From positions 2,848,001-2,912,000 of the forward strand of contig CM000151.3 in NCBI GenBank assembly GCA_000004695.1: DNA of 64,000 nucleotides, written 5' to 3'. The notes under the pieces are model-generated. The model was not told the origin of the DNA. It searched no databases and saw nothing but the letters and a program-made list of their open reading frames with translations. Numbering within the stretch: the first letter of the stretch is position 1; the number at the start of each line of letters is the position of its first letter. The stretch comes from Dictyostelium discoideum. Lineage: Eukaryota. The position numbers and the translations under genes were made by a program. Positions 46,718 through 49,700 of this stretch are shown here, piece after piece.

Positions 46718-49700
46718 TTAATCAAAATAACCTAAATATCTCAAGAAAAGAGCCCTGTCTCCTACTTTTTTAATTAAATCTTTCCATTCATATTCAGTGA
46801 TTGAAAAAGCAGTTTCGAAATTTGAGATTGAATTTTCTTCAAATACTTTGGCAATTGCAGTTCTTTGAGTAGGAGAAAGTGGGATATTAATAAACCAAGA
46901 TAAAAAACTGTCATTTAATTCAGGATTATCAACAATCTCAACTCTTGTCAATTTGGCAGAGTTTGTTGGATCAATTTTAATTTTAATATTTTCAGGTTCA
47001 GTTTCTTGAGACTCATCCATTGTTTCATCAATTTCATTTTGTTGTTGTTGTTGTTGTTGTTGTTGTTGTTGTTGCTGTTGTTGTTGTTGTTTTTGTTGTT
47101 CATCTTCTGAAGTAGAAGTAGTAGTGGTGGTAGTAGTTGTAGTAGTTGAGGTAGTAATAGCATCTTCATTTGAGAAATCATTATTGTCAATATTCATTTG
47201 ATTTTCAACTAAAACTTCATCTTCTTTTTCTTGTTTTAGAGTTGATTGTTTGTAAATGAATAAAATTGAAGTTCTTTTTTCAACCTCTAAATTTTCACTT
47301 CTGTTAATGAATGATACTGGATCATTGGTTGAACATCTAATGCTTGCATTTTCATTGTCATCTGAGGAATTAATATGAATTGAACTATGATTTCCATTTG
47401 ACATTAGCACAGATTCTAATACATAGGTTAAATCATCACCACCACTACCATCATCATTTTGAATTTCAAATGAATTACCAATTTTAATGAATTTTGGGAA
47501 ATCGATAGGTTTGAAAGTTGGTTCACCATTTTTAATTCTATTTACAGAAACTAAAAGATGAGATGGTGAGCTAATTAAAACTGTTTTACGTTGAACTTGT
47601 TTATTACAATTTTTACATTGCTCAATTGAATTATTTTGAGAGTAGAGTGTGTTGGCAATATTCTCTTCGATATTATTTGAATCAATGTTTACAGTAAAGT
47701 CCAAAATAAATTGTTGAAGATTTGGTTTTATTAATTTCTTACAAACATTACATATATGTTGACAACTACCAGTGAGAGGAGTGAATATGGATGATGATAT
47801 TTTTTTAATTGATTGTAAAAGTAAAGCTAAAATCTTTGAAGGTGATAAGAAGGATGAAGATGGAGTTGAATTTAATAATTCCATTAATTCATCATTTGCT
47901 TCAATGAATTCCTTAAATAAAGTATCGACTATGAATGGTTCTTTTAATTTTTTACTTGAAATCGATTTGAAATGTTGTAACTCTGTATATAAAGAGAAAG
48001 AGAATTTAACATCTTCAATATTTAATAAATCAATTAAATTGAATCTTATCCATTCTAATAAACTCGTAGCAAAGATTGGTATTGACGATGATGATGATGA
48101 TGTTTTGATAGTATGATCCTTTAATATTAACATAGTTTTAATTAATGATTCATCCTCTTCTTTATCATTTCCATCATTACTAATAACTTTAACATTTTTA
48201 GTTAGATATTCATTATTGTATGATACTAATTCTTTAAGTTTCAAATTTTGATCAGCTTTTTTAAACATTGGATTAATGGATCTATTATCTTGAGATTGTG
48301 AAGGGGTTGAAGCTCTTGGATTGAAAAATTTCTTTTTAGTAGTGCCATTTAAATCATCAATTGTTAATTCTTTGAAAATGATTAAACCACCACCACCACC
48401 ACTACCAAATCTACTATTTTTATCATTTGTAACTTCACCAATTTCATCCAATTGAATGTGTAAAACTGTTAGAGTTTCTTGAAGTGTACCCATAAATGTT
48501 GCATAATAACTTGAAGTCATACTTGGTAAAACAAAAGTAAAGATTGATAAATTGGTTGAAGGTTCTTTGATATCACGTAATTGGAATTTATTAATTAAAT
48601 GTAAAAGTGGTAAATCTGGTTGAATGGATCTTGCAATTCTCTTTGAATCTTCAGAAGATGCTTTTTGAATGATTTTACCTAAATAATCTTTCCAAAGAAT
48701 TGAACGTTCTCGAATATCAAATTCACAATCCTTTAAGATACTCTCTGAAATTGATTTAAATTGAATTAAATAGTCATTGTTTGGTTGAACTGGGTCAGGA
48801 ATAATTGAACTATAATAATATCTAAATCCAAGGTAACTATTTATAAATATATCACATAGTGATAATACTTGATTTACATTAATAACTGGTAATAAATCTT
48901 TAATAGCAAAATCTAATTTAAATGATTCAAAAACATCATCACTCATTAATTCAATATTATTATTATTATCATTATTATTATTATTATTATTATTATTATT
49001 ATTATTATTATTATTATTATTATTATTATTATTATTATTATTATTATTATTATTATTATTATTATTTTTAAAATTTGAAAATTGTAATTGATTTAAATTT
49101 AAAGTTTTAATAAAATCTAAATTTTCTTGTTTTGAAATTAAAAGTAAAATTTGAATTAAATATCTACCAAATGATTCTAATTGATCATTATTTAATTTTG
49201 ATTTACATCTTGAACGTAATTTAATCTTTATAGTTTCTTCTATTTCATTATTAAAACCTGTAAATGTTTCAATCTTTTCAATTAATTCATTTAGTTCTTT
49301 AATAAATTCTGGTTCAACAGTTGGTTTTTTAATTTTATCTAATAATTTTTCATTAACTTTAGTAACTACTTCAGTTAAACCATAATCTTCATCGTCATCG
49401 TCATCATCATTATCATTATCAACTTTTTGTTCTTGTGATTTTTTAATGGTTGGTTGTTTTTTGAATTTTAAATCTGTTTTAAATCTAATTAATTGATTTC
49501 TAATTACTTTACCATAGAGATATTGTAAGATGATTGAATTTTGAATTAATGACCAATCGATAGAACCTACAAATTTAGATTTATCAAGTACAAAGTATTT
49601 AGAGATCCAAGATGAATAATAATGATAGAAATCTTCAGGTTTAAAGTTTGCACCAATTAATAGATTATCACTACCAATTGTTGATGGAATATCACCAATA

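Follow-up and report, generated by a model that had tools for sequence, protein, structure and literature searches.

A window of 64,000 nucleotides from Dictyostelium discoideum (contig CM000151.3, positions 2,848,001 to 2,912,000; all coordinates below are those of the window) carries on its minus strand an uninterrupted open reading frame (ORF) of 4836 codons (46718..61228, 14.5 kb), which encodes a giant protein with an AAA core of the type found in RNF213. Close to the C-terminus of this protein is a domain that is descended from a ubiquitin-specific protease (USP). It has the zinc ribbon of the USP fingers and no catalytic cysteine, and we think it quite probable that it is a pseudo-enzyme serving as a non-catalytic docking module, preferably as a reader of ubiquitin or a ubiquitin-like protein (Ubl). 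A docking role would seem likely because the fold and the zinc site are intact both in this uninterrupted reading frame and in relatives from other dictyostelid genera. Since the catalytic cysteine is missing, the domain probably binds ubiquitin and does not cleave it.

A preliminary description, made from the letters of the window, had drawn attention to a cluster of cysteines and histidines at 47250-47790 that resembled the fingers and His-box half of a USP. All the motif strings that it quoted are recovered, where it had placed them, by translating the minus strand of the ORF. The motif stretch occupies 47246-47788, and 47250-47790 corresponds to residues ~4481-4660. The segment 47735-47788 encodes residues 4481-4498, of which TGSCQHICNVCKK is 4486-4498 and holds Cys4489, His4492, Cys4493 and Cys4496, while CKNCNKQVQRKTVLISSPSHLLVSVNRIKNG begins at residue 4538 and includes Cys4538 and Cys4541. 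The two CxxC pairs are separated by 41 residues, not by about 37 as had been given. The siting of the cluster at the C-terminus holds only approximately: a further 175 residues lie beyond it, made up of an acidic/poly-T/poly-Q linker and then a folded domain of 78 residues.

An exhaustive HMMER search (50%-identity representatives) identified five real relatives, all of them dictyostelid 'hypothetical proteins': P0002 from D. cf. discoideum, P0003/P0008 (DDB_G0278777), P0004 from Synstelium polycarpum, and P0005 and P0006 from Acytostelium subglobosum. The link to the USPs was made through these. When each member of an alignment of five C-terminal domains (A1) was scanned against Pfam, P0005 matched PF00443 (UCH) with 44.6 bits (cut-off 23.9; E = 1.8e-11) over positions 100-254 of the 254 in the profile, corresponding to the fingers and the His-box half; in the giant-protein domain nothing recognisable by sequence corresponds to the first 100 profile positions. 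The D. cf. discoideum paralogue P0002 matched the same family weakly (E = 0.0078). A hidden Markov model (HMM) built from the window, P0002, P0008 and a D. purpureum copy (copy A, the C-terminus of which was spliced by hand across two GT-AG introns) found residues 5457-5636 of P0005 with 51.8 bits. As this Dictyostelium-only model finds the same stretch of P0005, the window domain and the Pfam-positive domain are homologous. The five-sequence profile of A1, searched against the Protein Data Bank (PDB), gave USP36 as its best match (E = 0.0044) and also found USP9X (E = 0.27), the alignment with USP36 covering both CxxC pairs, the 'lkRF' strand and the His box. The relationship is seen by profile methods only, phmmer of the Acytostelium USP segment having found no match among the PDB sequences.

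The fold was modelled with AlphaFold2 for residues 4365-4668 from a six-sequence alignment, with the D. purpureum row left out. The model (predicted local distance difference test, pLDDT, 63.6; predicted template modelling score, pTM, 0.61) begins with five helices and has a beta-rich half after them. Searched against the PDB with Foldseek it gave 254 matches at E ≤ 0.001; the predicted structure matches USPs only, the best 50 of the 254 all being USPs (Ubp8, USP36, USP7, USP14, USP21, USP15 and USP1; E = 1.2e-10 to 7e-9). The alignments with USPs extend over ~310-340 columns, that is, over the whole domain with the thumb included, and the fold is therefore that of a complete USP, reaching beyond its C-terminal half. 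We regard as solid the prediction that residues ~4383-4662 (47243..48082, minus strand, as are all the features that follow) form a complete USP (peptidase C19) fold of helical thumb, zinc-ribbon fingers and palm, which is predicted to be catalytically dead. The earlier suggestion of USP fingers and a His box, probably of an inactive USP-like protein, is thus borne out both at the level of profiles, through the P0005 match and the Dictyostelium-only model, and at that of structure; the idea of a half-domain is superseded by the complete fold.

The elements of a USP can be followed along the domain. The helix with which the model opens (segment residues 21-33) is a degenerate Cys-box helix, IFATSLLEWIRFN (residues 4385-4397; 48038..48076), which has the same length as alpha-1 of USP7, CYMNSLLQTLFFT, the same spacing to the first strand and a common TSLLE/NSLLQ core. 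In Acytostelium and Synstelium, referred to here as group 2, the equivalent helix is followed by L...PEF, as occurs in many USPs. The last thumb helix, SPSKILALLLQSIKK (residues 4462-4476; 47801..47845; model helix 99-109), is at the position where USPs carry the QQDA.EFL helix and precedes an LFxG motif that the family HMM aligns to PKLFRGK of USP7. Of the two zinc-ribbon pairs, C4493-N-V-C4496 (47741..47752) aligns to the first CxxC of USP36 and C4538-K-N-C4541 (47606..47617) to its CAKC. Most USPs, though not all, have a four-cysteine zinc ribbon at the finger tips, and from the sequence these four cysteines are the predicted zinc ligands of such a ribbon, closing the fingers. They are followed by SPSHLLVSVNRIKNG (residues 4554-4568; 47525..47569), the equivalent of the USP motif 'lP.vL.l.LkRF', which was aligned to LTLPPVLHLQLMRF of USP7 by hhalign and to USP36 by HMMER, and by the equivalent of the His box, YVLESVLMSNGNHSSIHI (residues 4602-4619; 47372..47425), also aligned to USP7 by hhalign. 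STNDPVSF (residues 4633-4640; 47309..47332) would correspond to 'fnD..V', judging by a manual alignment to KFDDDVV of USP7; its TN is present in P0005 and in D. purpureum copy A and absent in P0002. The last palm strand, ILFIYKQ (residues 4655-4661; 47246..47266; model strand 289-296), is equivalent to 'aYlLfY' of USPs and has counterparts in LLIYKK, VMLVYSK and ILLIYSL of the relatives.

Identity between the genera is 22-29%. All five members of A1, which represent three genera, have the first CxxC without variation, and four of them have the second; the motifs LFxG, (S/V)P..L.I.(I/V)NR, Y..HS, SIHI and LLIYK recur as well. The conservation of the cysteine pattern across the family makes it a feature above chance. 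Of the Cys/His cluster as originally noticed, it is the CxxC pairs that are conserved in the dictyostelid relatives; Cys4489 and His4492 ('SCQH' in the window) are not, and they are therefore no part of the motif.

The same domain has no cysteine with which to act as a protease. After residue 4168 the only cysteines are at 4489, 4493, 4496, 4538, 4541 and 4632, and none lies between residues 4169 and 4488, a span that includes the whole thumb and Cys-box half. There is therefore no cysteine nucleophile, whichever alignment is adopted. The preliminary description had been unable to find an N-terminal Cys box; the thumb and its first helix do exist, only free of cysteine. In the register that we favour, on the basis of secondary structure and of what is known of the motif, Ile4385 would take the nucleophile position. 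At the His box, hhalign places Asn4613-His4614 on Gly463-His464 of USP7 (the USP7 sequence used is 100% identical to PDB entries), so that His4614 is at the catalytic-His column. In the relatives this column holds serine (P0005), arginine (P0006) or lysine (P0008), or is deleted (P0002 and D. purpureum copy A); P0005, for example, reads GGSYSIHI against GGHYVVYL in USP7. His4614 itself is encoded at 47387-47389, and the relatives instead keep a histidine four residues further on, at the position of His4618, within SIHI. The third triad position, at which many USPs have aspartate or asparagine, would be taken by Asn4635 of STNDPVSF in the manual alignment, hhalign giving no convincing alignment there. 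Since P0005 keeps a cysteine in the Cys-box helix but has serine at the His column, no aligned member has a complete triad, and with no complete conserved triad in any of them we take the family to be one of pseudo-USPs. Judged from its sequence, the window domain would be unable to act as a cysteine deubiquitinase and is a predicted pseudo-deubiquitinase.

The domain is carried by a protein whose AAA core is, by sequence, RNF213-type. In a phmmer search of the PDB sequences, residues 1284-1984 (~700 residues; 55277..57379) aligned to residues 2491-3190 of human RNF213 with E = 3.8e-43, and only RNF213 chains were found. Pfam reports AAA_7, AAA_5 and AAA in the giant protein, the matches to dynein-type AAA families being weak. 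Walker A motifs, GDTGTGKS at residue ~1148 and GPPGCSKT at residue ~1590, are located where AAA3 and AAA4 of RNF213 would be. An affinity to RNF213 had been hinted at before on the ground of a possible RZ finger; the affinity stands, through the AAA core, and the ground for it does not. There is no RING-like Cys/His cluster in the 4836-residue ORF, and Pfam gave no RING, RZ or other zinc-finger family for the complete protein at E ≤ 0.1 and no RING or RZ family for its last 381 residues at E ≤ 10. Neither phmmer of residues 3000-4836 nor a three-sequence profile of residues 2900-4300 recovered an RNF213 chain, and the profile had no PDB match at all. By these sequence searches, the E3 module of RNF213 (E3-back, shell, core and C-terminal domain, CTD) is not detectable in the giant protein. 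RNF213 itself has been described as a vertebrate protein with an E3 module that lacks structural relatives (PMC7311170). It has nothing like a USP fold, since its E3-back, shell, core and CTD are without PDB counterparts and its CTD has a bilobal alpha-helical architecture (PMC7311170). In the middle region of the giant protein, Cys3492 (~50753-50755) and Cys3767 (~49928-49930) are invariant in an alignment of three genera (A3); at an invariant-cysteine site the window has VDCNAKYE, where Acytostelium and Synstelium have DCGMIYR. These two cysteines may serve a function in a module not yet recognised.

Beyond the poly-T/poly-Q linker, the last 78 residues (4759-4836; 46721..46954) adopt a five-helix SAM fold according to a fold search. 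The tail has no Pfam SAM match, in which it differs from the SAM domains of Aveugle, CNK2 and SARM1 with which it was compared, and it is assigned to the fold class only, because the alpha-CTD of RNA polymerase scores about as well. A profile of the tail searched against the PDB gave only marginal EF-hand and MutY matches, which were taken as chance, and the fold search settled the assignment. The arrangement described here is kept in the Dictyostelium and Acytostelium relatives, and in Synstelium, where the gene model is chimeric, only the thumb part is present: over residues ~4560-4827 of P0004 the giant protein ends after the USP thumb and is fused to a Cdc48-type AAA domain (Pfam AAA, 129 bits). 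This fusion is probably a mis-joined prediction and not a true architecture.

Every database copy of the family is a 'hypothetical protein' without domain annotation, and the window's own protein was not recovered in any search of the protein collection. A word-indexed protein search gave no match for the C-terminal 580 residues or for the family alignment, and with the AAA core it gave a single D. purpureum fragment. Naive database matches were swamped by homopolymer runs, leading to nuclear pore proteins, Snf5 and the like. Such runs include ~36 asparagines at residues 4055-4090 (48959-49066, minus strand) and ~20 glutamines at residues 4711-4730 (47039-47098, minus strand), with additional poly-N tracts elsewhere in the protein. 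Just upstream of the giant ORF, at 61358-63929, are three more minus-strand ORFs of 191, 212 and 359 residues, and the gaps between these and the giant ORF are short, AT-rich and intron-like in appearance. The gene probably encodes more than 4836 residues; the Acytostelium homologue has 5794. On the D. purpureum contig GL870996.1 there are three tandem paralogues, at 1-6805, 8780-13864 and 15267-24389, the middle one of which lies in fragments in several frames, like a decaying copy. These tandem copies, with the broken one between them, suggest that the family duplicates and evolves fast.

Taken as a docking module, the dead USP would read ubiquitin or a Ubl. It may recruit the RNF213-type AAA machine to modified targets, or it may hold ubiquitin on that machine, and the SAM domain might add self-association or the binding of a partner. 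Several points weigh against this interpretation. The window segment by itself (the last 381 residues) has no relevant Pfam match even at E ≤ 10, and phmmer of the C-terminal segment against the PDB sequences gave only low-complexity (poly-Q/poly-N) matches; because the segment alone matches no Pfam family or PDB sequence, its link to the USPs is transitive, by way of the homologues. The confidence of the model is moderate, it was built from six sequences, and the TM scores are 0.5-0.6. The register of the Cys box is ambiguous, hmmalign and pairwise alignments to USP7 disagreeing between family members. In an alternative register Ser4389, His4614 and Asn4635 would line up as a Ser-His-Asn set, and the group-2 dictyostelids keep an 'HC' in the helix that would under this register supply the nucleophile. 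Finally, the binding of ubiquitin by the domain is purely something that we infer.

The nearest alternative is that the domain is a structural relic, a dead USP fold that has no ubiquitin binding and that packs or spaces parts of the giant protein. The pseudo-USP of PAN2 would be the precedent, since it is reportedly a structural scaffold that supports a neighbouring nuclease domain. Consistent with a relic are the quick divergence of the family, seen in the low identity between genera, the broken-up tandem copy in D. purpureum and the low-complexity linkers that flank the domain. Distant dictyostelids have nevertheless retained the zinc ribbon as well as the motifs at the core of fingers and palm, and flexible linkers hold the domain at the end of the protein, where it is not embedded beside another catalytic domain. 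We consider a relic possible, if doubtful.

It is very improbable that the domain is an active hydrolase, cleaving ubiquitin or a Ubl by means of Ser4389 (or another residue) together with His4614 and Asn4635. His4614 does fall at the catalytic-His column, Asn4635 is, by manual alignment, where many USPs have asparagine or aspartate, and Ser4389 aligns with the conserved cysteine of the group-2 homologues, being cysteine in both Acytostelium and Synstelium. None of the three is conserved across the family, however, the favoured register has Ile4385 and not Ser4389 at the nucleophile position, and P0005, with its cysteine, has serine at the His column. We know of no USP with a serine nucleophile. 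Least credible of all, and already contradicted, is a zinc finger of the RZ type known from RNF213 and ZNFX1, or of another E3 type, which would make this a site of ubiquitin transfer. The preliminary description had offered an RZ-type module. A Cys/His cluster near the C-terminus of a protein with an RNF213-like AAA core would invite it, but the best zinc-finger match in Pfam was to Znf_XAF1_N (E = 0.2, over 15 residues), with no RZ or other zinc-finger family otherwise matching at E ≤ 10, the C-terminal modules of RNF213 have no sequence similarity to the motif region, Cys4489 and His4492 vary, and the CxxC pairs, 41 residues apart and within beta-strands of the USP fold, are the zinc site of USP fingers, so that this candidate was rejected.

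A USP-derived reader remains the interpretation that we prefer, and it can be set beside three known systems. With USPs in general (PF00443; USP34, USP7 and USP36) the domain has in common the CxxC...CxxC ribbon, LFxG, 'lP..L.i.l.R', 'Y.L.svl' and 'lLiY', and one member of the family passes the Pfam threshold; it differs from them in having no catalytic cysteine and no conserved catalytic-His column, and by itself the window copy reaches no sequence threshold. Sad1/USP39 and the USP domain of PAN2 (USP52) are pseudo-USPs. The giant-protein domain has no specific sequence relationship to either, and whereas their partners are the spliceosome and a deadenylase, its partner is an RNF213-type AAA protein; in contrast to them it keeps the zinc ribbon and is terminal, on flexible linkers. 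With RNF213 the giant protein shares the AAA region, the siting of the Walker A motifs (AAA3/AAA4), a giant single chain and a link to the ubiquitin system, but it lacks a RING and an RZ finger, the E3-back, shell, core and CTD are not detectable in it, and its C-terminus is instead a USP fold and a SAM domain.

RNF213, a factor of major importance in human disease and innate immunity, and the pseudo-USPs are each well known separately. An RNF213-type AAA core together with a dead USP and a SAM domain, without RING or RZ, is an architecture that is not annotated in any database copy. Full-text searches for RNF213 in Dictyostelium or the Amoebozoa turned up, judged by titles and abstracts, no apparent description of it. 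More speculatively, and at present unlikely, the expanded, tandem-arrayed and fast-evolving family of the social amoebae, decayed copies included, may consist of RNF213-type AAA machines in which a dead-USP reader and a SAM domain replace the E3 module of animals, forming a pre-metazoan arm of cell-autonomous immunity that would sense, and assemble on, bacteria or damaged compartments coated with ubiquitin or a Ubl. If this were true, the RNF213 AAA core would have been partnered with ubiquitin before animals arose. With the present finding the few known pseudo-deubiquitinases gain a new architecture. It also means that the RNF213 AAA core is present in dictyostelids, coupled there to a different module of the ubiquitin system, which would offer a tractable model organism for the role of the AAA core in ubiquitin recognition or transfer.

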